A stretch of DNA of 35,433 bases from a virus (IMGVR_UViG_3300012007_000007:1-35433); one strand, 5' to 3'; positions 13,005 through 29,515 are shown, numbered from the stretch's first letter. The notes: generated by a model not told the origin, from the sequence alone. A program made the numbers and translations.

Positions 13005-14345
13005 ATGAACGGGAACATTCCATCTGATTCGGAAACAATCGCCGCACTGTACAGGGGATACCGGGTTCTCACCGAGGGGGCCGGGGAGGTCGATGCCGCC
13101 AAGTACGTATACGACCACGTGGTCCGTCCCGTAGGAGAATTCCTTTCGGACCCGGCGAACAAGGAACAGATTTACCAGATGATGAGTGACCCGGAAGACC
13201 GGGCGGTTGTCCACGACTTCACCGACGCTGACGGCAACCGGGAATGGACAGTCCGTTTCGTAAAGCTCGGAAACGGGGAATACAGGTACAGCCCCCGCTA
13301 CTACCAGGCGCAGAAGGTTATAAGCATCCCGCTGTACCCGTTCCTGGCAGGTACGTACCGGGCGACGCCAGGCATGAGCGAGCAGGCCAGGGAAAATGCA
13401 CGCCTGACACTGCTGTTCAAGGATGGCGTGCTCGCCGACAGCAGGAGAAACTTCAACCTTGCCCTGCTCAGGGCCTGGAACTTCCCGGGAGGTCCAGCCA
13501 ACGGGACCACCCTCAGGGACACCCTGCTGCACGAGGGAATCCACCTGTTCGACGACAGGTTCGCCCCTGACATGCAGATGGACGAGGAACACAAGTACCT
13601 TTCAAAGGAAGACCGCGAAGCCCAGGCCAGGATAGACAAGGCCGGTACTCTGTATGCACAGAACCAGCTCAAGAAGGACGAGGATACCAGGAAGCGCATG
13701 TTCCCTGCCTGGTACAGCCGTACCCGGTACGGGAAGAACGACATCAAGAAGATGTCGGAGTTCCGCCGGTCGTTCCCGGTCGAGGACCTCAAGCGGTATT
13801 CTGGCGAGACGGCCATTTCCAGGAATACCAACATGCCGACAAAGTGGGAAGGATATGACAATATCCGCAAGGCCGGCAACAAGTACCAATACTGGCTCAC
13901 AAACCACAGCAACATGGAGACAAGGGCATACCTGATGGAGCAGCTCCCTGTCCTGCTGGGAAAGAAGAAGCACGGTGTCCCGTACGACATCAATGCCGTA
14001 TCGCAGGAAATTGTCGACCATGTTTTCAATGTCCCCGAGCCAAAGGTCAAGCAGCCCCCTACCGACGAGTTCGGACACCATTCCGAGCAGGCATTCGAGT
14101 ATACCGACCCTATTGACCAGGATGCATGGCGGAAGAGGGTACAGGATGCCATCCTTCCCGATGCGAAGAGGAGCGTCGAGCGTCGTGCGAGGAACCTGGT
14201 GGCAGCTATAAACGCAATCGACCCTCCCGACGACATGACCATATCCGACAAGATGTCCCTGTTGAAGGACTACATGGACAGGATACACTCTGAATCGCAC
14301 CAGAAAAAACCACTTCATCCGCGCAATAATCGAGAAATGGAATAG
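13005..14345 (+). CDS. HExxH zinc-metallopeptidase-like protein, putative virion cargo
   Basis: LLHEGIHLFD and downstream NMETRAY; N-terminal leader AALYRGYRVLTEG. Confidence 0.6.
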   Translation: MNGNIPSDSETIAALYRGYRVLTEGAGEVDAAKYVYDHVVRPVGEFLSDPANKEQIYQMMSDPEDRAVVHDFTDADGNREWTVRFVKLGNGEYRYSPRYYQAQKVISIPLYPFLAGTYRATPGMSEQARENARLTLLFKDGVLADSRRNFNLALLRAWNFPGGPANGTTLRDTLLHEGIHLFDDRFAPDMQMDEEHKYLSKEDREAQARIDKAGTLYAQNQLKKDEDTRKRMFPAWYSRTRYGKNDIKKMSEFRRSFPVEDLKRYSGETAISRNTNMPTKWEGYDNIRKAGNKYQYWLTNHSNMETRAYLMEQLPVLLGKKKHGVPYDINAVSQEIVDHVFNVPEPKVKQPPTDEFGHHSEQAFEYTDPIDQDAWRKRVQDAILPDAKRSVERRARNLVAAINAIDPPDDMTISDKMSLLKDYMDRIHSESHQKKPLHPRNNREME

Positions 14346-14390
14346 TTTACTCCCTGTAAGGGCAACATAGCGCCCGCAAGGAGACTATTC

Positions 14391-14756
14391 ATGACACGCG
14401 TCCTGCCGCACATATACAAGGCGATGTACCTGTCCATCTTCATCGCCTTCGCACGCAAGATTATAGATAAGGTCAGCCTGCTGTTCGACGAGTGCGTCCC
14501 CATCGTAAACGAGGATGACGAGGACTGGTACGCAATCAGGCTATACCACAAGTTCTTCATATACAGCAACATATCCAAGCAGGCCGCGAGGAACCTGGCC
14601 ATGCAGATTTACAGGGAAGTCCCGGCACTCCGCGGGCATATCGAGGTTGTACAGCACGAGGACCCGTTGGAAACCCCGGTTTCCGAGGTCGGCGGTCTGT
14701 CCAAGGAAGAGCTCGACACCATCTACGACATTTTCTCCACGTTCGAGGAAGATTAG
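14391..14756 (+). CDS. N-terminal tag family protein
   Basis: IYKAMYLSIFIAFARKIIDKV; AAGGAG RBS. Confidence 0.8.
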   Translation: MTRVLPHIYKAMYLSIFIAFARKIIDKVSLLFDECVPIVNEDDEDWYAIRLYHKFFIYSNISKQAARNLAMQIYREVPALRGHIEVVQHEDPLETPVSEVGGLSKEELDTIYDIFSTFEED

Positions 14757-14773
14757 TTCAGCAGCGGAAACGG

Positions 14774-14800
14774 GAAAGGGCGGCCTCCGGCCGCCCTTTC
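14774..14800. terminator. bidirectional terminator hairpin
   Basis: gaaagggcggcc-tcc-ggccgccctttc between convergent genes. Confidence 0.8.
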
Positions 14801-14818
14801 TGTACATATGGAACGAGA

Positions 14819-15574
14819 CTAGATGCCGCTCCCTTCCTTCGCTCCGGAAATCCAGTCCAGTACCGGAAATTCCGGGAGGTCCCTGATGGTGCCGTCAATA
14901 TCCACCATCACGCGGGTTGTCAGGCCGTGAACCAGGTCGTCGAGTTCCACGGATACCTCGCTCCCGTCGTCGAGAAACACCGTACCGTTGAATCCGTACG
15001 GATACAGGTTGCGGTCCTGCATGAAGTTCAGTTCGGACAGATACGACGAGTGTTCCCTCTCGTCGCAGATTATCTTCATCCGGACACGTTCAGCGCCGCG
15101 GCAGCCCTCCACTATGCATACCGGCCTTTCCAGGAGTGCCCGGGAAACCTCCGCATTGACGTGCGGCTGCAGGTTCTTGAAGAACCGCCTCGTGTCCGCC
15201 GTAAGTACGTACCCGTCCACTTCCGGCTTCTCGTTGCCGAAACTGTCAGTGAACATGCTCCGGCAATACAGCCTGTCGACCTTGTACATGAGCCCCGGGA
15301 TGGCGACGGAGAACAGGTACAGCGATTTCTGTTTCTGGTACGGTACCATGCCAATCTCGTGGATTGGGTATTCGCGCGGGTTGAGTTCTATCCCGGTTTC
15401 CTCCCGGAGTTCCCGGAGTGCAGCAACCAGCGGAGTCTCCCCATCTTCCAGGTGGCCCTTGGGAATGTCGTACGACATCTCCGGGCCTCCCGGGCGGTCC
15501 GTGGGGTGGCATGCCAGTATTCCCCCGTTTTCCCGGTCAAATACGATAAATCCGCATGACAGTTCCTTAGGCAT
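14819..15574 (-). CDS. Nudix hydrolase with C-terminal extension
   Basis: Nudix box GHLEDGETPLVAALRELREETGI. Confidence 0.92.
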   Translation of the reverse strand: MPKELSCGFIVFDRENGGILACHPTDRPGGPEMSYDIPKGHLEDGETPLVAALRELREETGIELNPREYPIHEIGMVPYQKQKSLYLFSVAIPGLMYKVDRLYCRSMFTDSFGNEKPEVDGYVLTADTRRFFKNLQPHVNAEVSRALLERPVCIVEGCRGAERVRMKIICDEREHSSYLSELNFMQDRNLYPYGFNGTVFLDDGSEVSVELDDLVHGLTTRVMVDIDGTIRDLPEFPVLDWISGAKEGSGI

Positions 15575-15981
15575 CAGAACCCCATTTCCTTTGCCTCGTC
15601 CCTTGCCCGGCTAACGAGGTCAACATTTGCCTCGTAGCCGCGCATCGCCATGTCGAGCGCCTGCTGGTGAGGAAGGGTGATTTCCTTCACGGCATCCTCC
15701 CGGTCCATTCCAGGTACCTTCGCCTGCGCCCCGTTGATGACGTTCTCGGCGAGCTTCCTGCGGATGTAGGACGGGTCGCAGTCCGCCAGGCTCGCCTTGC
15801 GGATAGGAACGTTCATGTACGGGTTTCCTTTCGATGGGGTGGACTCGAACAGCGGCTTTGCCTTCCCGCACTTGCACTTGCAAGGCGTTGAGCGGACCTT
15901 GTCCCGAATCCTGACGATTGCCAGGACGATGATTCCGACGTATGCCGTAACATACAGTACCTTGAAGAACTTATCCTTCAT
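15574..15981 (-). CDS. membrane-anchored hypothetical protein
   Basis: GAGGAGG RBS; N-terminal TM helix then CKCKC. Confidence 0.7.
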   Translation of the reverse strand: MKDKFFKVLYVTAYVGIIVLAIVRIRDKVRSTPCKCKCGKAKPLFESTPSKGNPYMNVPIRKASLADCDPSYIRRKLAENVINGAQAKVPGMDREDAVKEITLPHQQALDMAMRGYEANVDLVSRARDEAKEMGF

Positions 15982-16837
15982 TTTTGCATTCCTCCTCGCC
16001 AAAGAGTTCCCTCATGGCTGGTTCAGTTTTAAAAATCGGGCCGACCCCGTCGAAGATGACCTGGTCCAGGTTTGCGATATCCCTGAACGGCGGCAGTTCC
16101 GGGTACTCGGTGACCGAGCGGACGCACGTGCCGCCCTCCCCGAAAATCTTCTCGATTACGTCAGGAGGGACGTTGCGGGACTTCATGTACTCCACGTCAA
16201 GCTGCACCTCTCGCACCTTGCGGAACGCGGTGAGTCCGTACTTGTCGCCGTAGGCGCACTTGTTCCAGTCAACTCCACGCTCCAGCATCATGGCCAGGCG
16301 CTCGTCGCTGTTCTTTCCCGCGAGTTCCCTGTTGGAGAACACGGTCCTAGCGACGTTGGAGATGGAGTTCTTTATCGCGTCCTTCTGGCGCCAGATAAGC
16401 ACCTTCAGTACGTCATCCTTGGTAACCCCGTAAGAGCGGGCGTCGAACGTGGCCAGCCTGTCTTCACGGTGCCTGCCGCTCGCCCGCAGGCTTTCGTTGA
16501 ATGCAGCGGTAGCAACGGACGCCGCTATCGAATCCAGCTTGTGGCACTTCCTGCCGAAAGGAACCTTGCGCGGGGCGATGACGACCGTTATCTCGTCGGA
16601 CTGTGTATAGACGACTACCGGGCAGAACTCCCCGATAAGAGCCTCCACGGCAGCCTTCATCGCATTCACTATGTCTTCGCAGAACGGCTTGTCCTTGCGC
16701 TTGTACGGCCTGGTGAACGTGTGGAAGGCACGCCCGTCGACACGGATGATGCAGTACTCGTCCTCCGGTATCACCATGTTGTAGGTATACGGGATTTCCA
16801 GCTTCTTGCAGTAATCACCCAAAGTCTCGCTGCTCAT
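15971..16837 (-). CDS. thg1: tRNA(His) guanylyltransferase Thg1 / Thg1-like 3'-5' polymerase
   Basis: IIRVDGRAFHTFT, YTQSDEIT, FDAR, WRQKDAIKNS; start ATG 16837 with GAGG RBS. Confidence 0.93.
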   Translation of the reverse strand: MSSETLGDYCKKLEIPYTYNMVIPEDEYCIIRVDGRAFHTFTRPYKRKDKPFCEDIVNAMKAAVEALIGEFCPVVVYTQSDEITVVIAPRKVPFGRKCHKLDSIAASVATAAFNESLRASGRHREDRLATFDARSYGVTKDDVLKVLIWRQKDAIKNSISNVARTVFSNRELAGKNSDERLAMMLERGVDWNKCAYGDKYGLTAFRKVREVQLDVEYMKSRNVPPDVIEKIFGEGGTCVRSVTEYPELPPFRDIANLDQVIFDGVGPIFKTEPAMRELFGEEECKNEG

Positions 16838-17007
16838 AGAATTACCTCGCGATTTCCTTTCCCGGTATACACCACTGGCTCCACGTCCCGTCGCATTTCC
16901 TTGCTCGCTGCAATCGACGCCTTCAGCCATGCTATGGTGCGGTCGATTCCGTACTCCGCCGCCAGCTCCAGGAGCTGGTCGATTTCCGATGTTGTTTCTA
17001 TTGGCAT
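16834..17007 (-). CDS. 57-aa helical protein (not in ORF track)
   Basis: AAGAGG RBS; MPIETTSEIDQLLELAAEYG...; ATGA overlap with thg1. Confidence 0.6.
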   Translation of the reverse strand: MPIETTSEIDQLLELAAEYGIDRTIAWLKASIAASKEMRRDVEPVVYTGKGNREVIL

Positions 17008-17071
17008 TTGTACCTCTTCTTGTAGAATTCCCGGTATATTCCGCCGGTTTTGGGGTCACGATATACTTCCA

Positions 17072-17308
17072 TCAGAATCCCTCCCTGAAATCGGGGGTGT
17101 CCGGAAGGTAGATTCCCGGGGCCGGTTCGTACAACGGCATGTTTTTCTTGTGGAATTCCCGTTCGATGTCCAGTCGCTTCCTGGCGTCGACTGCGCTCTG
17201 AAGGAGCTGCTTGGATGTCGTAAAGCCTAGCTCACGCACAAGCCCCATGATTTCTTCCATCGGTTCGTTACATGTTGGCGCCATATCATTCTCCAGTGCA
17301 GTGGACAT
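17072..17308 (-). CDS. hypothetical protein (leaderless)
   Basis: ATG 5 nt after class I motif. Confidence 0.7.
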   Translation of the reverse strand: MSTALENDMAPTCNEPMEEIMGLVRELGFTTSKQLLQSAVDARKRLDIEREFHKKNMPLYEPAPGIYLPDTPDFREGF

Positions 17309-17313
17309 GCCCC

Positions 17314-17326
17314 AAATATAGCAATT
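17314..17326 (-). promoter_or_regulatory. class I promoter motif
   Basis: AATTGCTATATTT-GGGGC-ATG on the minus strand. Confidence 0.75.
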
Positions 17327-17344
17327 TCCTTCCCATTCGACTGT

Positions 17345-17351
17345 ATAAACT
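17345..17351 (+). promoter_or_regulatory. class II promoter ATAAACT
   Basis: 7 nt before ATG 17359. Confidence 0.65.
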
Positions 17352-17358
17352 GGGTTTT

Positions 17359-18405
17359 ATGACCGGATTTCCCGACATAACGCCACTTTTCCTGGAAATC
17401 GCCGCCTGCCCTGACCCGATGCGCAGGGCGATTACCGAGGCGTGCGGGAAGCTCCTCGAGGGGATAGGTCCTTCTTTCACAGAACTGAGCAGGTACCTCA
17501 GGGAAATCAACGAGCCTTCCCCGGCATATCCGGAAAGGTTCGCCGATGAATGGAACTCCCGTAACGAGACGGGGAGGGTCGAGGGCGTACTGCACTTCCT
17601 TTCCGCCGGTACCCCGGAAGCCGTCGAGTCCTTCACCGACATACTGAACCTGGCGCTAGGAAAGCGCGTACCGCTGGCCGAACCGCTGTCGGACAGGGCA
17701 AGGGATGAAATAGACGGGCTTACCGGAAAGGAGCTGTTCAGGCTGAAGGATATCCTGCTTTCCGGGGACACCTCCCGGGAAACCGTGTCCGATGTCCTGG
17801 ACATGGTCCCGCAGACGGCCATGGAAGTGCTCGGGATAAGCATGGGTAACTGGGAGAACTCCGACGAGAGGAACCTGACCCTCCCGGATACCCCCGGGGA
17901 GTCCAGGGTAATCAACGGGTGGCTCGTCCACAACTCCGACAGGGCCAATAGGATTTACGAGGAAGGGTTCCGCAATGGGAACCCGGTAGGATACCTGGCA
18001 TACGGGAAGGATGGCAGGAACGACGATGACGTGTATGCATTCGCGTATCTACTGAAGGACGCTCCAGCACCGGGAGAAAGAACCAGCGGGAACGGGCTGA
18101 AGTACACCTTCGACGGTCCCGGGGCGAGCATCGTGTTCAGGGGGAGCGGCAACGTGGTCCGCCACGCCGGGGATGCCGAGAGGCAAGTCATTTTCGACAA
18201 GAACGAGCCTACCGGGTGCTTCCTGGTGGCTTTCACCGGGAAACCGGGAACCGGCGGGTCTTACGACGAGCCGGGCTGGGGAGGATACGGGAAGAACCCG
18301 GGAAGGGCCTTGGTTTCCGGGAGGTACTACCGGGAATGCCTGGACTGGATTGGGAGGAACGGCGACGCATACGAGAGCCAGATGAAAAAATGGAACGCCG
18401 CATAA
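17359..18405 (+). CDS. putative ADP-ribosyltransferase-fold virion protein (paralog of 28928..29515)
   Basis: WLVHNSD..IYEEGF..YLAY..YAFAY..RHAGDAERQVIF; leader ends KLLEG. Confidence 0.5.
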   Translation: MTGFPDITPLFLEIAACPDPMRRAITEACGKLLEGIGPSFTELSRYLREINEPSPAYPERFADEWNSRNETGRVEGVLHFLSAGTPEAVESFTDILNLALGKRVPLAEPLSDRARDEIDGLTGKELFRLKDILLSGDTSRETVSDVLDMVPQTAMEVLGISMGNWENSDERNLTLPDTPGESRVINGWLVHNSDRANRIYEEGFRNGNPVGYLAYGKDGRNDDDVYAFAYLLKDAPAPGERTSGNGLKYTFDGPGASIVFRGSGNVVRHAGDAERQVIFDKNEPTGCFLVAFTGKPGTGGSYDEPGWGGYGKNPGRALVSGRYYRECLDWIGRNGDAYESQMKKWNAA

Positions 18406-18426
18406 ACATTGTACGAGGATAGACAA

Positions 18427-19428
18427 ATGACTGCATGTTGCGAGGGAATATCCGACAAATCACTTTCGACTGCCCTGCTCGAGGGATACCATGCACTCCT
18501 TGAGGCAAAGGTATGCAAGGAACTCCAGCCAATATTCAACTGGTTGCTACAGACCGGCGACTGGGTATACAAATCCGGCGGCACCCATTCCAACAAGCTC
18601 CAGATTAACGTAGAGCCGAAACTGCTGCCACTGGTCGACCAGCTGATGCGGGATGGGAAAATCAACCCGAAGGATGAAAAGGCATTCAAGCTCGGCATAA
18701 TTTTCACGTCGACCCCGCTGTCATTCAGGCGGGCGATTGATGGAATCCTGAGCGAAATCCGCGGGTGCTACCAGATAGCCGCGGCCCTGGAGCACGCGTA
18801 TTACGGGCACAACGGACAGGAAAACGCTTGGCTGAAAAAGGGAACCGAATTCATGGAAAAGTTCATGGACGGGCGTCCGCTAGACACCACCGGTTCCGAA
18901 TACACCATCAATGCCGTCACTGGAACGGAATCTCCCGAAGAACCAGACATGATTACCGTTACCGGAGAGGACGGCCAGACATGGCAAGTACCCAACTGGA
19001 AGAAGCACCAGGCGTTAGAAAAAAAGAAGAAACTGATGCAGTCCAGCTACAGTATCCCGGGAACCCCGATGATGGAAGGAATATTCAGCGATTTCGGCAA
19101 GAGGCTGGCCAGGGGAATAGTGGCCGCCGCGATGATAGGCGGGTTCATGGCCGGAAACGCCAGTGCGGCCGACACCGCCAAGCAAGCTAGCCCCGGGTCC
19201 GGAAAGGCAAAACCAGAGGTGAACGTAAAGACAATGAATACGAAGTCGGGCACGTTCACATCGGCGGACCTTAGCAACCTGTACATGAGCGAGGCGTACA
19301 ACAAACGTGTCCGTCAGCTGGTTGATGAGGAGTTGAAACGGAAACCCAATGGCGACATACAGTTCATTTACGATTTCGCATGCCTGCAGGCAATGGAGGA
19401 AATCGTTTCCGGCAAGCTGAAACCTTGA
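18427..19428 (+). CDS. putative virion protein with LLEG/LLEA leader and internal signal-peptide-like segment
   Basis: ATAAACA at 18402; GAGGA RBS; ALLEGYHALLEA. Confidence 0.65.
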   Translation: MTACCEGISDKSLSTALLEGYHALLEAKVCKELQPIFNWLLQTGDWVYKSGGTHSNKLQINVEPKLLPLVDQLMRDGKINPKDEKAFKLGIIFTSTPLSFRRAIDGILSEIRGCYQIAAALEHAYYGHNGQENAWLKKGTEFMEKFMDGRPLDTTGSEYTINAVTGTESPEEPDMITVTGEDGQTWQVPNWKKHQALEKKKKLMQSSYSIPGTPMMEGIFSDFGKRLARGIVAAAMIGGFMAGNASAADTAKQASPGSGKAKPEVNVKTMNTKSGTFTSADLSNLYMSEAYNKRVRQLVDEELKRKPNGDIQFIYDFACLQAMEEIVSGKLKP

Positions 19429-19440
19429 TTGTTTCAGCTG

Positions 19441-19453
19441 AATTGCTATATTT
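19441..19453 (+). promoter_or_regulatory. class I promoter motif
   Basis: AATTGCTATATTT followed by the hairpin aggtgtcgggaa-g-ttcccggcacct. Confidence 0.7.
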
Positions 19454-19499
19454 GAGGTGTCGGGAAGTTCCCGGCACCTTTCTTATTGGAAATGGAAAT

Positions 19500-19697
19500 A
19501 TGCAGAGAATCGACGTTGTATTCTGGATTATTATATTTTTGTGGGCATGTTCCAACATCGGAACTTACCTTCTATTCGGCGAGGCGGCGATAATCCCTTC
19601 CGACCTGGTATTCGTCGGATTCCTTCTCCTGCTCATCGTTGTATCCAAGATTTCCAAAAAAATCAACAGATGGCTAGGAACGAAGATATGGGAATAG
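19500..19697 (+). CDS. small two-TM membrane protein
   Basis: MQRIDVVFWIIIFLW...; two hydrophobic helices and a basic tail. Confidence 0.7.
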   Translation: MQRIDVVFWIIIFLWACSNIGTYLLFGEAAIIPSDLVFVGFLLLLIVVSKISKKINRWLGTKIWE

Positions 19698-20119
19698 GGC
19701 GGCTACTCGGGTCCATATACGGGGGACTCTACGTTCTCCTGGTCATCCACTATATACGTCTTCTGTACCACAAGCTGTTCCCCAAAATGCACTACGACTA
19801 CGACCGCGCATCGAAGTACATACTGGCCTATTTTCCTCCCGGAAGCCCCGGGATGCCACTGCTCGCGACCACGATGACCAACAAGAAAACGCTCGCCTGG
19901 CTCGAGAAGGCCCGGGCGACAATGCAGGCATACCTAATCAAGGGAACGATGCGTGTGGTTACCGACGAGGTACCGGAACTGGAAATCAATTATAGATGCG
20001 GTGGTCATGTCATAGCAATGCGCATGCTTACAGACGGTGTGCGTGGTTCCAAGTCCGAATTTGCCCAGGTAATAGCTGATATTTTTACCGAAGCAAAAGA
20101 GCTAGCCGCTAAAGGCTAG
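19688..20119 (+). CDS. N-terminal tag family protein (divergent)
   Basis: IYGGLYVLLVIHYIRLLYHKLFP. Confidence 0.7.
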   Translation: MGIGRLLGSIYGGLYVLLVIHYIRLLYHKLFPKMHYDYDRASKYILAYFPPGSPGMPLLATTMTNKKTLAWLEKARATMQAYLIKGTMRVVTDEVPELEINYRCGGHVIAMRMLTDGVRGSKSEFAQVIADIFTEAKELAAKG

Positions 20120-20126
20120 CCCAATT

Positions 20127-20318
20127 TCAAGCATATATCTCTTCTTCCTCGACTCCATACAAGGTATAGTTGGCGGAGTCTTCCATGGCTTTGTCGAACG
20201 CCTCCATGCATTTGTCGCACAGGTACCATGGGGTGGTTTCCACCGCGTTATACCAGAAGCAGTTGAGCATAGAGTAGGTCTTGCACTGCTCGCACCTACC
20301 GTATGACTTCAGGCTCAT
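20127..20318 (-). CDS. small zinc-finger protein
   Basis: CEQC...LCDKC; GGAGGA RBS. Confidence 0.65.
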   Translation of the reverse strand: MSLKSYGRCEQCKTYSMLNCFWYNAVETTPWYLCDKCMEAFDKAMEDSANYTLYGVEEEEIYA

Positions 20319-20709
20319 TCTGTTTCCTCCTTGCCAGCCATTCTTCCATTATGGCCGAATATCTTTCCGGTACGTCAGCAGGCTGGCACCTCCCGGCAAG
20401 CAGCTTTCTACGCCAGTAGTCCCAGGAACCGAAGGTCACCCCGAACTTCTCCAGAAACGCCTTCTTGTACTTCACGACGTACTGCTGGCACTGTTCCCGG
20501 TGGTTCTCGAAGTATCGCCGGCACTGCCTGGCGTTGGCGATTCTCCCCTTCTCGGAGTGCCTGTACTTCTTGTTGGCCACCTGGTTCCTGCGACGCCGCT
20601 CGGCTATTACCTGCTCGTGTATCGATGTTGTTGGCTTGTTAACTTTTCCTGGCATTTGGGCTGCCAGTGCCCTTTGCCACATGTCTTCCACAGACCCGTT
20701 CATCGGCAT
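20296..20709 (-). CDS. basic helical hypothetical protein
   Basis: AAGAGGA RBS; class I motif at 20769..20781. Confidence 0.7.
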   Translation of the reverse strand: MPMNGSVEDMWQRALAAQMPGKVNKPTTSIHEQVIAERRRRNQVANKKYRHSEKGRIANARQCRRYFENHREQCQQYVVKYKKAFLEKFGVTFGSWDYWRRKLLAGRCQPADVPERYSAIMEEWLARRKQNEPEVIR

Positions 20710-20768
20710 TGTTGCTTCCTCTTGATGTAATGTAGTTAGACCACGAGAAAAATATATTCCCTCTACAT

Positions 20769-20870: not shown

Positions 20871-20897
20871 ATTCCAATGTCCTGTACTGGACCGTTC

Positions 20898-22060: not shown

Positions 22061-22138
22061 TTTTGGATATCCTAAGTACATATGCACGTCATTTTCCTTT
22101 ATGATGTACTACAAATATAGTAATTTTCCCATATGATA

Positions 22139-22166
22139 GAAAAATCGGGCCCGGCTGGGCCCGATT
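22139..22166 (-). terminator. intrinsic terminator
   Basis: aatcgggccc-agcc-gggcccgatt followed by T-run on the minus strand. Confidence 0.8.
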
Positions 22167-22188
22167 CAATAACTTGCCAAATGCCGGG

Positions 22189-25100
22189 TTATTTCAGCTT
22201 CAGCTCTGGCTCATCCTTGGACTGGACGTACTTCTGCTTGGTTTCCCCGAGAGTTTCCAGCTTTGTGAGCATGCTCTTCAATTCCTCCGACCAGTCCTTG
22301 CTGTTATCCCACCAGCCCGGCACATTGAATCCATACTTTGCAGAATCAGTCAACTGCAACTTGTTGTGTTCCCCATACCGATTCGCCACGATGCGGAAAG
22401 CATCCAGTATGCCGTTCTGCCGCATGAGCTTGGCGGCAGCCACCACGTACTTGTTCTTGGCATTGCGCAGCATGAAGTCGGTCAAGTTGTAGAACCGCTT
22501 GAGCAGGGTCGTTTCGGCCTCCGCCCTGGCGACATCGGTCCACTTCCTGGTGTTCGAGTATATGCTGTCGTACGCATCGAGGATTACCCTGTATATCGAC
22601 ACGACATACTCCGGGAAGTTCATAGACTTCATGTACTTCTTCAGCTGTGTCTCGTTAATCATGCCGTTCACGGTACGGTCCGTAATATCCATGTCGTCCA
22701 CCGGCGTCTCGTCGAACTGACGGACCATTTCGGTATCGAGGAACTCCTTGTTTACCAATCCCTGCTTATTCAACACGACGGCGGTTTCATACGGTATGTG
22801 CCGTCCGGAATGTATCGCATCGGAAATTGCCTTCTTGACGGCATTCAAAACCGGGCGCTTGCGGAATGCCTTACTCGTGGTGACATAAGTTATGTCAGAA
22901 CCTTGTTCGGCCGAGAGCAAGTAGTCCACTACGTAGTCTACATATTCCTGGTCGTTTACCTTGCCATTGGAACTCATTGCCGGCACGATATACGTGTCTA
23001 TGAACTGCTTCTTTCCCTTTCGTTCAGCAGCTGCGGGCCAACCTTCCACCGGTATGTTGACATAGAACTTTCTCCATGACTGGAATGGCGGACATAGCAG
23101 TTCGGTCGCTGCCTGACTATTGCTGTCAAAATACAGTTCAGTAAATATCGGGTCACCGGCATCCAGCGCCCCTGTCCTTTCCAATTCGACAAATACAAGT
23201 GTGCAGGAGAATATGCCCCAGTCATTGCGCCGGGTTTCAAGGTCTGCCGACCGGTATCCTTCCTTCAGAATGTCGGCCAGGTTCTTGGACAGGTACGACG
23301 TATCCCTCGAATATGTGTGCTCAATCATAGCGGCTTGCGGAAAGACGTAGTTGCATACCTGAATCGGTGTTACGTGCTCCATTATCTCGGGGAACTTCCC
23401 GATTGCCATCATGGTCGCCGCGCCCATGGCGCTCAGCATGGCGTTCTTGTTCGACGGGATGCTCTCGCCCTTCTCTATCTGCTTCAGTGCCAGGGAAACC
23501 GCTGCTGTTCTATCCACATGGTTATCCGGGGCGACGCAGTAATACGCGAGCTTCAACGATGGGCGAAGGTTCTTTTCCATCCCTTCCAGCCCGGGCACTA
23601 TCTTCGTCACCTCGGCCAGGTTATGCACGCTGGTCAGGAGGTTCCTGGCATCCAGCTTTAGGTGGCTGGACGTATCCAGGCACAGGTTGGCAACTTCTTT
23701 AGCGCTCCTGCCTTCGAACAGTCTAGCTATGCGGTCACGTCCCAGGGCAAGCACGTTCATCACTATATCGTTGCTACGGGTTGCGCCATCTTCCGAGAAC
23801 AGCAAATGTTTCAGTAATTCGGTGGCGTTTTCCGGTAGCGGTATTTCCGGGAAGCGTCCATACGCCTGCAGTATCTTGTTTATAATATAAGTAGCACCTC
23901 CCCATCTTCCCCCGGGATTCCTCATTACCAATCCACTGAATATCCCGGAGGCGACCCGGTCATTCCCTAGGATTCGCTCGGCTATCGGCTTCGCCTTCTC
24001 GGGCGGGTTGGTATTCACTATGTACTCGATTACCTGTGACAGTGAACTGTCGTACGCATTGGCCTTTTTGTTGTATTCCTGGATTCGGGGATTGTCATAG
24101 TCCCTGTAAATGTCCAGCCCTTCCGGTTTCACCGGGCGTCCGGCAATAACATTGTCGATAAGCGGGTCAAGGATTTCCGGGTCCACCTCGAACGAGGCCA
24201 CCTCGGCCGCAATGCTCATCAGCCTCTCCAGGTTGGACGGCTCCGTCCGGACGAAAGCCTTCTGCATTTCCGGCGTCAGGAGGTGAATGTCGTAATTGGC
24301 GAACTCCTCGAGCGAAATCTTGCGTGAAGCAATCAGTTCCTTCAATTCCTCTTCATTGAAGGGGCATTCGCCGCATGCCGCGCATATGACATCGAACGGA
24401 TTTCGACCAAACGCATTGTCTGAATTGCCGTAATAGCTGCGTTCTTCTCCCCAGTTGCTGAACCTGGACGAATTCTTGTATGTCGGCATGCCAGTGAAGT
24501 TAATCAGCACCTGGCTTATCGACCAACCATTCTTATATATGCGCTTCAGGTCGTCTACAGTAAGGATGCCTTCCTGCACTGCACCCTGCCAGAACAGAAT
24601 CCTCTTCTCCGTGTTACCGAACAGCTCCGGCTTGTTCTCGCTCACATACTCGATGAACTCCGGGTCGTCTCCCATGAAGTCCTTCACGCCGAAGTTGTTG
24701 TGCGTAGCGTAACCGTAGTCGTACCTGTAGCCGACACCGGTAACCTTGTTCTTCAGGAGCCACTTGACGTACGGCTGTATCATCTTCCTGTACTTGTTCG
24801 GCTGGTTGCCCCAGGACTTGGATTCCTCAATCTTCCCGTCCGGGGACAGGATAACCGTAAGGTAAGCCTTTCCCTTGGCATCTCGTAATTCCCAGTACTG
24901 GTTATCGGAATTCCTATCCGGCGTATTGCCGCAGTGGTGCATTGTCTTCGCGGTGATATAGGATGGCATGTATGATGAAATCGCCCCGTTCTCGTTGACC
25001 GCATAGACCCACTTGAACCCGTCGGGAAACTCGTGGAACACCTTGACACGGTTCCAAATCTTCTCCTCCTCGGGAGTCAGGTTCGGATACGGCTTGTCGG

Positions 25101-25524
25101 ACTGTACCTTGTGCTCGACTGCCTGGGAAAGAAGTTCGGCTGCCTGGTTTGGCAAGGTGTCGCTGTTCACCTTGGAAAGGAACTTAGTGTCTAGCAGGTT
25201 GTGTATGAACAGGTCATGGATGGCATGAAGGCGTTCCTCGGTGGTGAAACCTGGCTGGCGGATTTCCATCAGGTATAGGAAGTTCAATACCTTCTGGGAG
25301 TTCTTCTCGCCAATCTGGTTGGTCATGTCCTCCTGGGACCACAGCGCCTGCACCGACTGCTTCGCCGCCTGGAACCTACCGGGGTCGCCGGTGTTGTCCG
25401 CCTCGCGCTTGAGGAAGTCCTTGTTGATGTTCTGTGCCTCGAGAAGACCCAGGCCCGAGCGTACCGCCTCGGCGAAGGCCGTGGGGAACGAAGATTTTTC
25501 CAGGAATGTATCTAGCGATTTCAT
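22189..25524 (-). CDS. 1111-aa protein with PcfJ-like domain, putative virion cargo
   Basis: TMHHCGN..WELRD..YLTVIL..KSWGN resembles PcfJ-like domains; leader ends GLLEA; class II promoter. Confidence 0.6.
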   Translation of the reverse strand: MKSLDTFLEKSSFPTAFAEAVRSGLGLLEAQNINKDFLKREADNTGDPGRFQAAKQSVQALWSQEDMTNQIGEKNSQKVLNFLYLMEIRQPGFTTEERLHAIHDLFIHNLLDTKFLSKVNSDTLPNQAAELLSQAVEHKVQSDKPYPNLTPEEEKIWNRVKVFHEFPDGFKWVYAVNENGAISSYMPSYITAKTMHHCGNTPDRNSDNQYWELRDAKGKAYLTVILSPDGKIEESKSWGNQPNKYRKMIQPYVKWLLKNKVTGVGYRYDYGYATHNNFGVKDFMGDDPEFIEYVSENKPELFGNTEKRILFWQGAVQEGILTVDDLKRIYKNGWSISQVLINFTGMPTYKNSSRFSNWGEERSYYGNSDNAFGRNPFDVICAACGECPFNEEELKELIASRKISLEEFANYDIHLLTPEMQKAFVRTEPSNLERLMSIAAEVASFEVDPEILDPLIDNVIAGRPVKPEGLDIYRDYDNPRIQEYNKKANAYDSSLSQVIEYIVNTNPPEKAKPIAERILGNDRVASGIFSGLVMRNPGGRWGGATYIINKILQAYGRFPEIPLPENATELLKHLLFSEDGATRSNDIVMNVLALGRDRIARLFEGRSAKEVANLCLDTSSHLKLDARNLLTSVHNLAEVTKIVPGLEGMEKNLRPSLKLAYYCVAPDNHVDRTAAVSLALKQIEKGESIPSNKNAMLSAMGAATMMAIGKFPEIMEHVTPIQVCNYVFPQAAMIEHTYSRDTSYLSKNLADILKEGYRSADLETRRNDWGIFSCTLVFVELERTGALDAGDPIFTELYFDSNSQAATELLCPPFQSWRKFYVNIPVEGWPAAAERKGKKQFIDTYIVPAMSSNGKVNDQEYVDYVVDYLLSAEQGSDITYVTTSKAFRKRPVLNAVKKAISDAIHSGRHIPYETAVVLNKQGLVNKEFLDTEMVRQFDETPVDDMDITDRTVNGMINETQLKKYMKSMNFPEYVVSIYRVILDAYDSIYSNTRKWTDVARAEAETTLLKRFYNLTDFMLRNAKNKYVVAAAKLMRQNGILDAFRIVANRYGEHNKLQLTDSAKYGFNVPGWWDNSKDWSEELKSMLTKLETLGETKQKYVQSKDEPELKLK

Positions 25525-25531
25525 ATTTGCC

Positions 25532-25538
25532 AGTTTAT
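25532..25538 (-). promoter_or_regulatory. class II promoter ATAAACT
   Basis: ATAAACT-GGCAAAT-ATG (7-nt gap). Confidence 0.65.
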
Positions 25539-25542
25539 ATAC

Positions 25543-26028
25543 CTACGCAGTCCATACCACGCCGTAATCTTTGCATAATTCCCGTACCTCGGAATATATC
25601 CGCCGGTAGACATCCTCCCGGAGATACCGGAATCCGTCCGGGGAATGCCTTCCATTGCACATCTCAGTACCTAGGTAAGTATGGATACACCCTGGATAGT
25701 TGCTCGATAGCGGGCGTCCTATCTTCATGCTGAACTCGCCCCGCTCGTGGACAATTGTCATCTGCAACTCAAGGGGCTTGGCTGCGGCGGCAACCCGGTT
25801 GAAGATGTCTGCCAGCCAGGTCGCGTCGCACTTCTCTACCAGGGCCAGTGCGATGTACACGTTCATCAGGGTCATCGAGTCTATCGTGGTCACGTACAGG
25901 ACAGTGTAGTATTCAGGATTACTGGTGATATTCCGGAAGCCCTTTCTCCCAGTAGGTGACAGGAGCTTCCTAAGCAGCCTCCGCAGGAAGTGCAGGGCGA
26001 TGGCAAGGTATACCGCAACCCGAATCAT
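25543..26028 (-). CDS. N-terminal tag family protein
   Basis: MIRVAVYLAIALHFLRRLLRKLLSP. Confidence 0.78.
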   Translation of the reverse strand: MIRVAVYLAIALHFLRRLLRKLLSPTGRKGFRNITSNPEYYTVLYVTTIDSMTLMNVYIALALVEKCDATWLADIFNRVAAAAKPLELQMTIVHERGEFSMKIGRPLSSNYPGCIHTYLGTEMCNGRHSPDGFRYLREDVYRRIYSEVRELCKDYGVVWTA

Positions 26029-26465
26029 GGCAGCACCTTCCTGACAATGCTCAAAATGTAGTCGAGACTCGGCTGTATGTCCGGGATTGTCCTTACGAAC
26101 GCTCCGGGGCGGTTTCCGTCCTCGTTGTTGCCCCTCTTGTAGTAGAATCCGATGTAGACGTACTCGTTGTTTTTCCAGAAGTAGGAGACGCCCGTCTTCA
26201 GACCGTACCGCGCGGCAATATCGTCGAGTTCTCCGTCGCTGGTAAAAGTGCCGCAGTTCGGCACCTGCTTGAGCGGTATGTACAGACGCTTGTTCCTTGC
26301 CATCGAGCCGAGTACCAGCTCGAACCCCAGGCACAGGGCCGTGCCCTCGAACGGTATCGGGCAAGTGCACATGAACGCCGGCGGCCTCGAGGACGGGAGG
26401 AGCTTCCATAAAAACCTCCGGAGGAACGACAGGAATATCAACAAGTAGCAAGCATTCCTCAGCAT
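26025..26465 (-). CDS. N-terminal tag family protein
   Basis: MLRNACYLLIFLSFLRRFLWKLLP. Confidence 0.78.
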   Translation of the reverse strand: MLRNACYLLIFLSFLRRFLWKLLPSSRPPAFMCTCPIPFEGTALCLGFELVLGSMARNKRLYIPLKQVPNCGTFTSDGELDDIAARYGLKTGVSYFWKNNEYVYIGFYYKRGNNEDGNRPGAFVRTIPDIQPSLDYILSIVRKVLP

Positions 26466-26890
26466 ATCTTCAGTCCATTTATTTGACGTTCGAGAACCTG
26501 CAAGTCACGATATAGTCGTTGTCTCTCAATCGGATTCAGTATACATGTAAACCCATGATATTCTCCACTAAGCAGGTATATCGGCCCCACGCCTACTATC
26601 TGCGACTCACCACGCTCCAATGTACTGTTTGGTTGCACATATATCAAGTCCTTCGTGTGGGCCCTCAATGCCTCGTACAGGTACTCCCGGTCCTGGGATG
26701 ATATGTCATTGGGCACGGAGCATAGATACATTATATGGCCTTCGTCAGTCCGGATAAACCATATGTTCTTGTCGTCATCCATCTTCATCTTGACAGGTTG
26801 CACCGGGATAATCCTGTCGACTACCTTCCTGAGGAAGGACAGGCAAATCAGCGCGTAGACCGGTGTCCTTATCGTTCTCAGGAGTTCCAT
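26459..26890 (-). CDS. N-terminal tag family protein
   Basis: TPVYALICLSFLRKVVDRIIP. Confidence 0.78.
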   Translation of the reverse strand: MELLRTIRTPVYALICLSFLRKVVDRIIPVQPVKMKMDDDKNIWFIRTDEGHIMYLCSVPNDISSQDREYLYEALRAHTKDLIYVQPNSTLERGESQIVGVGPIYLLSGEYHGFTCILNPIERQRLYRDLQVLERQINGLKIC

Positions 26891-27300
26891 AGAATCTCCG
26901 ATGCCTTTCCGGCCACGTTCCTCGCGATTTTCCTGCGTTCCCCCTCGCTCAGGTTCGGGAACTTAATTAACCCACTGACTACAGCGAGCGCACTTCCCTT
27001 CAGGAACTTCATCTCCGAAAGGTTGTTGGGCGCACCGTACACCTTCGACCTGTTGTCCGCGGCATACTTCGCCAGTGCGTCGGCACCCATGTTGACTATG
27101 CGGAACCCCTCGAACTGGGTGACTCCGTAGTGGACGCCAGTCTTTACTTTCCTGCAAACTATAATCGGGCCATTCGCCAGGTGGACCGAATGGTACATGT
27201 CCCGGTCCCCAGAATACGACAGCTTCCCTACCATCCGGCGTACGAACCATATGGCTATTGCGATGTACAGTGCGTTGTAGATGCTGCGGGATAGTCTCAC
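26878..27300 (-). CDS. N-terminal tag family protein (leaderless GTG)
   Basis: IYNALYIAIAIWFVRRMVGKL; GTG 5 nt after class I motif. Confidence 0.78.
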   Translation of the reverse strand: MRLSRSIYNALYIAIAIWFVRRMVGKLSYSGDRDMYHSVHLANGPIIVCRKVKTGVHYGVTQFEGFRIVNMGADALAKYAADNRSKVYGAPNNLSEMKFLKGSALAVVSGLIKFPNLSEGERRKIARNVAGKASEILWNS

Positions 27301-27305
27301 GGCTC

Positions 27306-27318
27306 AAATATAGCAATT
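27306..27318 (-). promoter_or_regulatory. class I promoter motif
   Basis: AATTGCTATATTT-GAGCC-GTG. Confidence 0.75.
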
Positions 27319-27320
27319 TT

Positions 27321-27527
27321 CTACATGGCGACGAATATCCGCATGACTTCCTCCCGGACTTTCCCGGTCTCCTCCCGGGAAGCCGCCAGCTTGTGCTGGA
27401 GTTCCGCGATGATTCCGACCAGTTCCGCCCGGGACATGGTGGACAGCTGCTCCTCGGTGAGCTCGTCCACGTTCCTCGTCAGCTTGTCGCCGAGCCACTC
27501 GCCCAGCTTTGATATGTTGAATTGCAT
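27321..27527 (-). CDS. small coiled-coil protein
   Basis: 68-aa helical ORF filling the gap. Confidence 0.6.
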   Translation of the reverse strand: MQFNISKLGEWLGDKLTRNVDELTEEQLSTMSRAELVGIIAELQHKLAASREETGKVREEVMRIFVAM

Positions 27528-27578
27528 AGCGTGCAGTATGTTTATTCCGGGAAGAATTCCCGGTTTCTTACATTTTTC

Positions 27579-27929
27579 TTACAGATTGTTCTTCACTATC
27601 TGCATGAGCTCTTCCATGATGTCTTCGTCGTATATCATGCGTACAGTGTCCGACATCAGCTCGTAGACCCTGAACTTTGGTCTCTCCGACATTATGGTTA
27701 GAAACTCCGGGTTCCAGTCATGGTCCTCCATTTCGGACATGACCTTCCTGGCCTTCCTGTAGGAAGTGCTCCGGTATACGCGCACGGCTTCCTTATTCTC
27801 CACTCCAAGGAACACATAAACGGAATACTCGCGTCCTACCGGAACCAGTATCCTGTCCAGGAACCTCCGCAGGAACCCCAGGAATATCCCGAGGTAGCCG
27901 GCCAGGTATATCTGCCTGCTAGGTCCCAT
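27579..27929 (-). CDS. N-terminal tag family protein
   Basis: MGPSRQIYLAGYLGIFLGFLRRFLDRILVP. Confidence 0.75.
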   Translation of the reverse strand: MGPSRQIYLAGYLGIFLGFLRRFLDRILVPVGREYSVYVFLGVENKEAVRVYRSTSYRKARKVMSEMEDHDWNPEFLTIMSERPKFRVYELMSDTVRMIYDEDIMEELMQIVKNNL

Positions 27930-28653
27930 CGGCCTTCCCGGGTCTCTTCCTGAATTTCCTCTGTGCCGGCCTGTCCATCGAGGTCGCCATCCTGGACAGT
28001 GCATCGACTATGGGAACTACCGAGCGGAAGTCCTCCGACGCCTCCCGGGAATCCACGGACATGCCCGGGATTACCCGGGATGGTTTCCGGCCTATCCCCC
28101 GGAGCACCCGGGAACGGTCTATCGCCACCTCGTCCGGGGCAACCCTTATCGTGCGCAGGCTTACCGCCCACTCGGCAATCCTGTTCCTGCGGAAGATGTG
28201 CACGGTGGACAGCTCGACGTTACCCTCGCGCTGCCCGACGTCGAGCACGTAGTCATGGTCCACGCCGACACCGTTGTCCCTGGTGAGGAAGTGCCCCTTG
28301 AGGGGCATGCAGGCAGCCACCGCGTCATACAGCGCGGCCTGCCCGGCGACCTTCCCGTACGGGAACAGCTTCTCCATGGCCGCCTGCACCAGGCGGTTTC
28401 CGGCCTCCAGCACGGCGTGGTCTGACGACGGCTCCCAGTCCGCCAGCTTGCGGAGCATGGATACGAGCTCCGGGTCCGCCGAGGAGGTTGTCTTGACGGG
28501 TATCTTGGGGGGCGACTTGGGGGGCGACTTGGTGGGCGACTCGGGGGGCGACTCGGGGGGTTCCTCGGATTTCCCCGGGAGTTCCCGGGGCTTAGCCGGT
28601 TTCCTGCGGAGCCTGATGACTCCGAACTTCTTAACTGCCGTTTCTTTCTTCAT
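27919..28653 (-). CDS. hypothetical protein with Pro/Ser/Lys repeat linker (leaderless)
   Basis: ATG 5 nt after class I motif. Confidence 0.7.
   Translation of the reverse strand: MKKETAVKKFGVIRLRRKPAKPRELPGKSEEPPESPPESPTKSPPKSPPKIPVKTTSSADPELVSMLRKLADWEPSSDHAVLEAGNRLVQAAMEKLFPYGKVAGQAALYDAVAACMPLKGHFLTRDNGVGVDHDYVLDVGQREGNVELSTVHIFRRNRIAEWAVSLRTIRVAPDEVAIDRSRVLRGIGRKPSRVIPGMSVDSREASEDFRSVVPIVDALSRMATSMDRPAQRKFRKRPGKADGT
28505..28560 (-). repeat. 12-bp tandem repeat encoding PPES/PPES/PTKS/PPKS/PPK
   Basis: (gggggcgactyg)n, about 4.5 copies. Confidence 0.85.
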
Positions 28654-28856
28654 GCCACAAATATAGCAAAGTTGCTGAATGATTGCCATAGAAAAGCGAA
28701 ATCCATCGCCTCGGCGATGGACTTGTTCAGGTGCTTGATTTTTCTCGTGTACTTCTTCCTGTCCCGGACTATCCTGGTCCGGAGCGTGGCGCCGTTGCCG
28801 GTGCCGGCAATCCGTTCCTCCCGGAGTCTCCGGGATTCTTTCGCTTTCTTGGCCAT
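28650..28856 (-). CDS. ArfA/BrfA-like alternative ribosome rescue factor
   Basis: AGGAGG RBS; MAKKAK...LRTRIVRDRKKYTRKIKH then a hydrophobic tail; terminator inside the ORF. Confidence 0.6.
   Translation of the reverse strand: MAKKAKESRRLREERIAGTGNGATLRTRIVRDRKKYTRKIKHLNKSIAEAMDFAFLWQSFSNFAIFVA
28659..28670 (-). promoter_or_regulatory. class I promoter motif
   Basis: TTTGCTATATTT-GTGGC-ATG. Confidence 0.75.
28692..28721 (-). terminator. intrinsic terminator inside the ArfA-like ORF
   Basis: TCCATCGC-CGAG-GCGATGGA-TTTCGCTTTT on the minus strand. Confidence 0.75.
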
Positions 28857-28889
28857 TGGTTTTCCTCCTGTTCGGTGAAAGTTTATAAT

Positions 28890-28905
28890 AAATATAGCAT
28901 AAACT
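28890..28905. promoter_or_regulatory. interlocked divergent promoters: TGCTATATTT (-) and ATAAACT (+)
   Basis: aaatatagcataaact. Confidence 0.65.
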
Positions 28906-28927
28906 GTCTGAAAGAAGGAGAACCCCG

Positions 28928-29515
28928 ATGGAACCAAGACTGATAGAGGCGCTGATGACCGGGTACCGGGCGATACTGGAAGCCCAGGATGCCGGTATGA
29001 GGAAGCTCGAGTCCTACCTGAACAGGAAACCCGACGCGGACATCAAGGACGATGACGGGTACATCACCACCGCGAAGAAGGCGTACAACTACTTCAAGGA
29101 TGCCAGGATGGTAGAGGACCACTGGGCCGTGCACTTCACGAGCGAGGAAGTCTACCCGAAGATAAAGAAGTCCGGGTTCTCCCACGGAACGTCCGTGCTG
29201 GACCACCTGGCATACACCTCGCAGTATCCTGGGAACCGCACCAAGCAGGGGTGGCTGTTCGCCGTTCCCGTTGACACGGCCTACCTGAAGCACTACGACA
29301 TGGGATACGGCGACTGCGCCTTCCTCATAAAGACCGACGGCGTGATAGCGAAGCACGTCGGGGAAAGGGACCTGGAACTCCTGTTCCGCCGCAAGGACGT
29401 GAAGGAGACCATCCCGTTCTACTACGACCGTGAAGAGAAGAAATGGGTAGTCGACGACGATAAGAAGGAGTCCTTCGACACCATAGGCGAGATTGTCGAC
29501 AAGTACGCTGTCTAG
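28928..29515 (+). CDS. putative ADP-ribosyltransferase-fold virion protein
   Basis: WAVHFTS..IKKSGF..HLAY..GWLFA..YGD..KHVGERDLELLF; leader TGYRAILEA; AAGGAG RBS. Confidence 0.55.
   Translation: MEPRLIEALMTGYRAILEAQDAGMRKLESYLNRKPDADIKDDDGYITTAKKAYNYFKDARMVEDHWAVHFTSEEVYPKIKKSGFSHGTSVLDHLAYTSQYPGNRTKQGWLFAVPVDTAYLKHYDMGYGDCAFLIKTDGVIAKHVGERDLELLFRRKDVKETIPFYYDREEKKWVVDDDKKESFDTIGEIVDKYAV

Follow-up and report, generated by a model that had tools for sequence, protein, structure and literature searches.

A recurrent N-terminal leader with a predicted gp21-type cut site on otherwise unrelated late proteins of an uncultured jumbo phage: a probable capsid-targeting propeptide

In bacteriophage T4 the prohead protease gp21 cuts after Glu in an L/I-x-E context, inside the prohead (PMC9026906). 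The T4 capsid-targeting sequence (CTS), a segment of 10 residues (PMC9026906), is carried by IPI, IPII, IPIII and Alt and is removed by gp21 (Mullaney & Black 1996, cited in PMC9026906 and PMC3012670); the T-even phages' internal proteins are diverse and the CTS is their only common element (PMC3012670). In the jumbo phages phiKZ, 201phi2-1 and SPN3US, the propeptides of head and ejection proteins are cut by gp175/gp245 at S/A/G-x-E (PMC10052503, PMC9026906). The phiKZ protease cuts at S/A-x-E and that of SPN3US at A-x-E, and their propeptides contain several sites (PMC9026906, PMC10052503). The subject of the present analysis is a 35,433-base stretch of viral DNA (IMGVR_UViG_3300012007_000007:1-35433, hereafter the window), in which five genes between positions 13,005 and 29,515 encode otherwise different proteins that begin with a similar leader ending in an L/I-x-E site. 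The window forms the left-hand 35 kb of a linear virus record of 222,157 bp in IMG/VR, ~78% complete by estimate, and the virus is an uncultured jumbo phage with T4-type relatives. Judged from its sequence and its conservation, the leader is probably a capsid-targeting propeptide in the style of T4 that is removed by a protease.

The five proteins start with AALYRGYRVLTEG (g13005), AITEACGKLLEG (g17359), ALLEGYHALLEA (g18427), AVRSGLGLLEA (g25524, minus strand) and ALMTGYRAILEA (g28928). A preliminary description of this DNA had reported these strings, and all of them are present at the ATG codons of the respective genes. It had also assigned an ATAAAC promoter to all five, and the motif indeed lies 8–23 nt upstream of each ATG. 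The features are listed below by window coordinates; a slash marks the predicted cut, ART stands for ADP-ribosyltransferase and HMM for hidden Markov model.

12991–12996, plus strand: ATAAAC motif of g13005, 8 nt upstream of the ATG
13005–13076, plus strand: g13005 leader, aa 1–24, ending ...AALYRGYRVLTE/G; defined by invariant positions in homologues
13005–14345, plus strand: g13005, 446 aa, HEGIH cargo; motif invariant in the family
17345–17350, plus strand: ATAAAC motif of g17359, 8 nt upstream of the ATG
17359–17505, plus strand: g17359 leader region, aa 1–49, upstream LLE/G (aa 32–35), then IGPSFTELSRYLRE/I; from 4 homologues
17359–18405, plus strand: g17359, 348 aa, putative ART-like domain at aa ~181–299 related to g28928 by hhalign
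18402–18407, plus strand: ATAAAC motif of g18427, 19 nt upstream of the ATG
18427–18504, plus strand: g18427 leader, aa 1–26, CCE/G, then STALLEGYHALLE/A; top match of the foreign-seed HMM
18427–19428, plus strand: g18427, 333 aa, N module aa ~27–200 and C module aa ~219–333, from homologue comparison
19069–19080, plus strand: internal MME/G at the g18427 module boundary, followed by a signal-peptide-like stretch
22189–25524, minus strand: g25524, 1111 aa, conserved in many jumbo-phage contigs
25438–25524, minus strand: g25524 leader, aa 1–29, FLE/K, then FPTAFAEAVRSGLGLLE/A; from the homologue logo
25533–25538, minus strand: ATAAAC motif of g25524, 8 nt upstream of the ATG
28899–28904, plus strand: ATAAAC motif of g28928, 23 nt upstream of the ATG
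28928–28981, plus strand: g28928 leader, aa 1–18, MEPRLIEALMTGYRAILE/A; rank 2 in an HMM without its family in the seed
28928–29515, plus strand: g28928, 195 aa, putatively ADP-ribosyltransferase-like from predicted structure and invariant residues

Alignments of homologues extend the leader beyond what had been described before. The shared N-terminal helix has ~22 residues. The core of the leader reads A-L-x-x-G-Y-x-x-h-x-E-[AG] and often stands behind h-x-E-G-[IM]-x-P-x-L, which gives the full form [h-x-E-G]-[IM]-x-P-x-L-x-x-A-L-x-x-G-Y-x-x-h-x-E-[AG]; the leaders of the carriers comprise 18–49 residues, and the upstream and downstream Glu sites are often 19 residues apart. The leader ends found across the five proteins, VLTE/G, LLE/A, ILE/A, LLE/A and YLRE/I, fit the (L/I)-x-E rule of prohead proteases. 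For g17359 the end of the leader had been placed at LLEG; that sequence is the upstream h-x-E-G site, and the equivalent of the leader end is YLRE/I. Pairwise BLASTP comparison of the five proteins reveals no similarity past the leader, with the exception of a weak ART-like domain common to g17359 and g28928 (hhalign E 2.4e-4, probability 43%, 110 columns). The notion of a modular leader that heads unrelated late proteins and terminates in a site of the T4 gp21 type is borne out.

Chance or compositional similarity of N-terminal helices was considered as a source of the resemblance, given the shortness of the motif and the weakness of a leave-one-out HMM of the five 19-residue strings, which recovered g18427 only. 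An HMM of all five strings, run against the six-frame translation of the genome, retrieves those five alone, which is a circular test. An HMM derived exclusively from foreign sequences, with the g28928 family excluded from its seed, nonetheless places g18427, g28928 and g13005 at ranks 1, 2 and 3 among the 4211 six-frame pieces of the 222-kb genome, so that the unseeded family ranks second. A strict foreign-derived pattern occurs at 3/63 ATAAAC-associated open reading frame (ORF) starts and at 0/790 others (Fisher p = 4e-4), and a relaxed version at 4/63 and 1/790, respectively. The leader is moreover conserved in every family examined, where it is among the best-conserved regions of each protein. 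Chance similarity is rejected on these three grounds and retains next to no credibility. The preliminary description would have given up its proposal of injected cargo if the motif were not enriched among ATAAAC genes; since it is enriched, that objection falls away, and the genome-wide leader HMM that it proposed supports the signal in the foreign-seed version. The remaining two proteins, g25524 and g17359, are divergent members recognised through their families alone. Conservation of the leader is at the protein level because the cores share only 47–64% nucleotide identity and use differing codons for the same residue. The many synonymous differences rule out a recently recombined DNA cassette.

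The family of g25524 has 86 homologues of ~1100 aa on contigs of up to 470 kb, with a conserved alpha/beta N-terminal half, a helical-repeat C-terminal half and the N-terminal consensus M.ELRRFILES.F.P.FA.AVYE.L.LLEA.NINKDFL. In the cut-site logo of 85 homologues, P1 is Glu in 85/85, P1' is Ala in 85/85 and P3 is Leu, Ile or Met in 82/85, in agreement with the T4 rule for cuts after Glu; the E29-A30 pair is invariant in 28 diverse homologues. The upstream h-L-E-S usually lies 19 residues ahead, the same spacing as that between MLEG and LAEG in the homologous protein P0003. The AlphaFold2 (AF2) model of g25524 has a predicted local distance difference test (pLDDT) score of 83, which drops below 50 at residues 26–30 (GLLEA), the invariant site. 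A PDB profile search and Foldseek yielded generic helical-repeat matches only for this protein, and the ESM Atlas nothing usable.

Comparable constraints are seen in the other four families. In ~20 relatives of g18427 the pattern [AS]-L-x-x-[GA]-Y-x-x-[LIM]-x-E-[AG] persists to ~30% identity, and an indel follows directly after E-[AG]. Homologues of g13005 at 98, 63 and 34% identity, the second of which sits on a 351-kb contig, retain L15, G18–L22, E24 and G25–V29 (AL..GYRVL.EGAGEV) without change, and a 943-aa fused form of g13005 on contig L002 keeps the leader. Residues E34, G35, P38, F40, L43, Y46 and E49 are invariant in the 4 homologues of g17359. Of the 24 relatives of g28928, those of the close group retain M-[DE]-x-x-L-x-x-[AS]-L-x-x-G-Y-x-A-I-x-E-[AS]; in another group, at ~40% identity, the cargo domain is again present and the N-terminus preceding it is a different one, MKxxIxL[TN]E. 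In the g28928 model (pLDDT 81) the leader is part of a long N-terminal helix whose pLDDT is < 50 at residues 14–19 (RAILEA), and the structural matches mostly begin past residue 16. In both models, those of g28928 and g25524, the leader is placed as an N-terminal helix outside the folded domain, with the low scores falling exactly at the predicted cut site.

The leader might instead be a docking helix that is not cleaved and that serves a different target late in infection, for instance a chaperone, a site on the tail or baseplate, a factor of the membrane or of export, or a compartment of the phage; E-[AG] would then just belong to the helix. In P0007, P0013 and g140075 it is AL..GY, not the Glu site, that is best conserved, several carriers have signal-peptide-like segments directly past the leader, and the leader is sometimes internal, all of which suit a docking element. 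The pattern of conservation elsewhere speaks against it: E-A is invariant in the 85 homologues of g25524 whereas the residues of the helix vary, and in the three proteins just named a Glu site that is missing at the end of the helix reappears as h-x-E-[GS] 6–7 residues further on. The different leader of the second g28928 lineage again contains L-[TN]-E, and tail-module ORFs behind the same promoter have no leader. An uncleaved docking helix is accordingly regarded as unlikely. A signal of two parts, helix and cut site, is favoured because the cut site is separable from the GY helix, because another leader with L-[TN]-E occurs on the same cargo and because leaders are found internally at fusion junctions.

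The genes g17359 and g18427 are neighbours in the window. P0008 (701 aa) and P0017 (543 aa) are fusions of a g17359-like to a g18427-like protein, in which the second leader lies inside the protein, where the domains meet. Within g18427 itself, MME/G is followed by IFSDFGKRLARG, a hydrophobic segment and ASA, a signal-peptide-like arrangement (window 19069–19200, aa 215–258). Elsewhere the C module is found by itself after a plain signal peptide at the N-terminus (P0018, P0014), behind a leader of its own (P0007, P0013, P0011) and behind an ART-like domain (P0009). This module of ~80 aa (...AYN.RV...GKLKP), which follows h-x-E-G and the signal-peptide-like segment, is in other phages a small protein of the secreted type. 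A signal-peptide-like segment directly past h-x-E-G was also observed at genome positions 140075–140500 and 179192–179734.

A protease that could cleave such sites was found in relatives of this phage. A profile search with the g28928 alignment identified five related IMG/VR phage records; g18427, g13005 or alignment A1 as query against viral contigs, and the g28928 alignment (A3) against genome contigs, returned nothing. All five records (5/5) encode a Peptidase_S77 protease of the T4 gp21 type (PF03420) above the Pfam cut-off, at 45–54 bits, which also matches phrog_207, and its gene lies 5–8 kb from the g28928-like gene. In one relative the protease is at L020:15520–16260, with a putative scaffold protein of 295 aa at L020:16273–17160. 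Two of them, G002 and G004, encode a Gp23-family capsid protein (PF07068, 216 and 214 bits) that is 24–30% identical to major head proteins of the T4 superfamily. The N-terminus of the relatives' capsid protein aligns with the T2 gp23 propeptide (KWKAVLES with KWKPLLEG, AVLLEN with AKIFEN). The ORF past the protease starts with MVLEQILTE/AEIKALPE... and resembles the T2 core proteins gp22, gp67 and gp68; the LIxE/A pattern is likewise present at the N-termini of T2 gp67, gp68, gp22 and gp21. In these relatives the ART-like domain forms the C-terminus of a 472–475-aa protein whose N-terminus reads ALLECALKEYVMLEG. The clade thus appears to be one of uncultured jumbo myoviruses whose heads are assembled in the T4 manner, and to represent a divergent jumbo lineage within the T4 superfamily. 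As a separate observation, G005 (L042, 169373–172492) contains an 82-aa fragment match to the Gp23 family, as opposed to the full-length genes of G002 and G004 (L040, L041), and its capsid gene may be very divergent or split.

The relation of the present contig to these head genes is suggested by comparison with G005, a 99% complete genome; only 53/318 ORFs of the present contig have a tblastn match in G005, at a median identity of 41%. The tail modules are collinear, at 187–218 kb here and 187–215 kb in G005; the region here contains a baseplate-wedge homologue and giant ORFs of 1100–1700 aa. The head module of G005 comes next, at 220–232 kb, the position where the present contig stops. At genome positions 220358–222157 (minus strand), an ORF of ~600 aa without a start codon runs off the right contig end, so the contig is broken inside a gene, beside the expected head module. 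The head module thus appears to lie beyond the contig end, and the missing part would be expected to encode the protease.

The leader is best described as an analogue, not a sequence homologue, of the T4 CTS. Both are short N-terminal leaders on otherwise unrelated proteins and end in (L/I)-x-E. The head appears to be of the T4 type, the relatives having a gp21-like S77 protease and a gp23-like capsid protein; an ART-like enzyme is among the putative carriers, as is Alt in T4, and the cargo varies among related phages. Unlike the T4 CTS, the present candidate leader has ~20–50 residues and often two Glu sites 19 apart. The putative cargo differs as well, with large enzymes and a 1111-aa protein in place of the small basic proteins of T4. 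The genes are scattered, each behind a late promoter of its own, and among the carriers there are fusions in which the leader is internal. The phiKZ, 201phi2-1 and SPN3US systems resemble what is predicted here in that they belong to jumbo phages with a gp21-related protease cutting after Glu, with multi-site propeptides and with many packaged enzymes. However, their P3 residue is small (A/S/G) whereas it is L/I/M here, and their propeptides mostly have 111–254 residues and share no portable module, in contrast to the one short module that recurs in the present phage. The principle itself is not new, being known from the T-even phages; what would be new is the longer leader with two sites and the much larger, enzymatic cargo.

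Capsid targeting is favoured because the leader shares the logic of the T4 CTS in a clade that has the same protease family. The preliminary description had gone as far as capsid-targeted, injected cargo; the modular leader, its cut-site end and the relatives' gp21-type protease and gp23-like capsid agree with that proposal, and several observations weigh against it. In this contig no gene for a prohead protease, a capsid protein, a portal or a terminase was detected by searches with PF03420, PF07068, PF05065 and PF17289 or by PHROG scans of 40 large ORFs; the link to the protease therefore depends on the distant relatives described above. The leader is 2–5 times the length of the 10-residue T4 CTS and unrelated to it in sequence. 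The h-x-E-[AGS] site is short and to an appreciable degree frequent by chance. In some homologues (P0015, P0035/36) the leader is internal or stands behind 70–100 residues, so an N-terminal position is not obligatory. Finally, the g18427 C module is found in other phages with just a signal peptide in front, for which export by the producing cell is no worse an explanation than packaging, and may be a better one.

A cut-site-like end with an invariant E-A is also what would be expected of a pro-segment that is removed by the prohead protease or another protease and serves to keep toxic enzymes inactive or soluble in the producing cell, with no role in targeting; entry into the head would then rely on other features or might not take place at all. 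The cargo consists mostly of enzymes potentially harmful to the producer, and sites occur at module junctions as well. Against such a function, one identical helix is unlikely to inhibit structurally unrelated enzymes, the AF2 models place the helix away from the domain, small non-enzymatic proteins carry the leader too, and T4 gp21 acts inside the prohead (PMC9026906). A pro-segment without targeting is for these reasons considered improbable, and a capsid-targeting propeptide remains the preferred interpretation.

It may be added that the Glu site of some carriers could have a second consequence. In the g18427 C module, g140075, g179192, P0007, P0013, P0009 and P0022 a K/R-rich stretch, ~18 hydrophobic residues and AxA directly follow the Glu site, the layout of a Sec-type signal peptide that would be masked until the prohead protease cuts. 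The capsid would hold these proteins, which after injection would insert into the next host's inner membrane or be exported through it, for delivery to the host envelope. This extension is a doubtful one. For the C module of g18427 the alternatives are export from the producing cell, which would count against capsid targeting of this module, or the unmasking of an export or insertion signal for the next host by cleavage in the head.

The nature of the cargo was examined for each protein. Pfam and PHROG scans of the five window proteins gave no matches. For g28928, most of the 50 VIA matches listed have the ART fold (Scabin Z 5.3, Tpt1 5.1, pierisin, diphtheria and pertussis toxins, PARPs), all of them weak (Z ≤ 5.3), and Foldseek is weak as well (E ≥ 0.29 against the PDB and ≥ 0.018 against a viral library). 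Residues H69, Y96 and E150, a candidate catalytic triad of the H-Y-E type, are invariant in the family. Among the effectors proposed earlier was an ART-like one; for g28928 an ART-like fold is weakly but consistently supported by the predicted structure, and neither g28928 nor g17359 has a Pfam match that would support the label. The HExxH effector that had been proposed alongside it is g13005, whose HEGIH motif is invariant in the family. No match to g13005 was found in Pfam or in a PDB sequence search, and the ESM Atlas returned sub-threshold metallopeptidase leads only; a metallopeptidase-like cargo is at present only a lead. A PcfJ-like effector, by contrast with these two, found no support: none of the five proteins matches any Pfam family at E ≤ 0.01 or a PcfJ-like family at E ≤ 5.

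The five carriers known at first are part of a larger set. A scan of all ATAAAC sites in the genome, together with inspection of individual ORFs, brings the number of leader carriers to at least about twelve, spread genome-wide. The additional ones are as follows.

g95887, 178 aa, leader MEPTLAKSLLLGYKACLEA: GNAT acetyltransferase family (PF00583, Acetyltransf_1, 45.4 bits against a cut-off of 20.7)
g153617, 367 aa, leader LMEALRKGYMECRE: SprT-like zinc metalloprotease family (PF10263, 42.8 bits against a cut-off of 25.6)
g73119, 427 aa, leader PLQEGFAAMCEA: no family match
g140075, 141 aa, leader LAEGYSRIAGRPLSEG: no family match
g134280, g173795, g174758, g179192 and g215033, of various sizes: weaker leader matches

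In the relatives, small leader-type proteins are encoded immediately upstream of the putative portal gene; in the present genome g173795 and g174758 seem to correspond to them.

The genome also contains a radical-SAM gene (59923–61209; PF04055, 43 bits) that is conserved in G005, and some leaders have a Cys near the first site. The leader could on these grounds be a recognition sequence for a modifying enzyme, comparable to those of ribosomally synthesized and post-translationally modified peptides, with the radical-SAM protein as an example of such an enzyme. That gene is, however, separated by >10 kb from g73119, the closest gene of the leader type, and by >30 kb from those of the window, no SPASM domain is reported in its product, and the Cys is not conserved across the leader families, whereas the helix and the Glu site are. 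Recognition by a modifying enzyme is thus very unlikely.

The ATAAAC motif has the distribution of a late promoter. The window contains 9 copies of TATAAAC, where 2.3 would be expected. ATAAAC is also present in front of the baseplate wedge gene and of the giant ORFs in the tail module of the same genome. In G005 it is found upstream of a 571-aa ORF in portal position, a 62-aa ORF just before the protease, a baseplate gene, tail-fibre-sized ORFs and leader-bearing genes. Where the gap between ATAAAC and ATG is 8 nt, no Shine-Dalgarno sequence is present (window 12991–13007, 17345–17361 and, on the minus strand, 25522–25538); if ATAAAC is a -10-like late element, the mRNAs of these genes would be nearly leaderless.

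Further observations concern the surroundings of g13005 and the genome at large. A second, distinct N-terminal tag, hydrophobic and then basic (for example YKAMYLSIFIAFARKIIDKV), is present on ~8 small ORFs of the window: 14391–14756, 32494–33000 and 32960–33415 on the plus strand, and 26025–26465, 26459–26890, 26878–27300, 27579–28004 and 29696–30130 on the minus strand. It looks like a membrane anchor and is conserved beside the g13005 homologues in L001–L004. L001, which is 97% identical to this region, has an extra 139-aa ORF between g13005 and the tag-family genes (L001:3358–3777, minus strand) that is absent from the window; its N-terminal region, ...ALSTGYDTCCES, is of the leader type. 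Other window genes encode an RNA ligase, a thymidylate kinase, a NADAR domain protein and a UDP-galactopyranose mutase, and the ORFs are mostly orphans. Megablast and tblastn with the window and g25524 as queries found no close relatives among GenBank phages. The PHROG scans of the 40 large ORFs identified only the baseplate wedge gene, a DNA ligase, a CCA-adding enzyme, several transposases (phrog_506), a sigma factor and similar genes. At least 5 transposase-like genes of phrog_506 are present (42053–43339, 44810–46111, 48273–49502, 57722–59470 and 218872–220254), some of them 73–93% identical to copies in G005, which suggests active insertion elements in this phage clade.

Taken as a capsid-targeting propeptide, the leader would act through docking, cleavage, packaging and injection, steps that we infer. 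Late in infection, ATAAAC promoters would drive tail and head genes together with the leader-tagged enzymes and other proteins. The first ~20–50 residues, forming an amphipathic helix, would dock each protein onto the scaffolding core during prohead formation. The prohead protease would then cut after the Glu of one or more [LIM]-x-E/[AGS] sites, freeing the mature protein inside the head, and would split the modules of fused proteins at internal sites such as MME/G. The cargo, comprising putative ART-like proteins, the HExxH protein, the SprT-like protease, the GNAT protein, the 1111-aa protein and small hydrophobic proteins, would leave with the DNA at the next infection. Carriage to the next cell, as for T4 Alt, is proposed because late expression of host-modifying enzymes makes most sense then.

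If this reading is correct, the leader labels, at the sequence level, the injected proteome in a large clade of uncultured jumbo phages. It would single out, among orphan genes, those active in the first seconds of infection, including ART-like, metalloprotease-like, acetyltransferase and small hydrophobic proteins. The masked signal, should it also prove real, would be a protease-armed route by which phage proteins reach the envelope of the new host. Foreign proteins might be brought into phage heads with the leader as a new portable tag, and the capsid-targeting principle of T4 would extend from small basic internal proteins to large enzymes and fusions.

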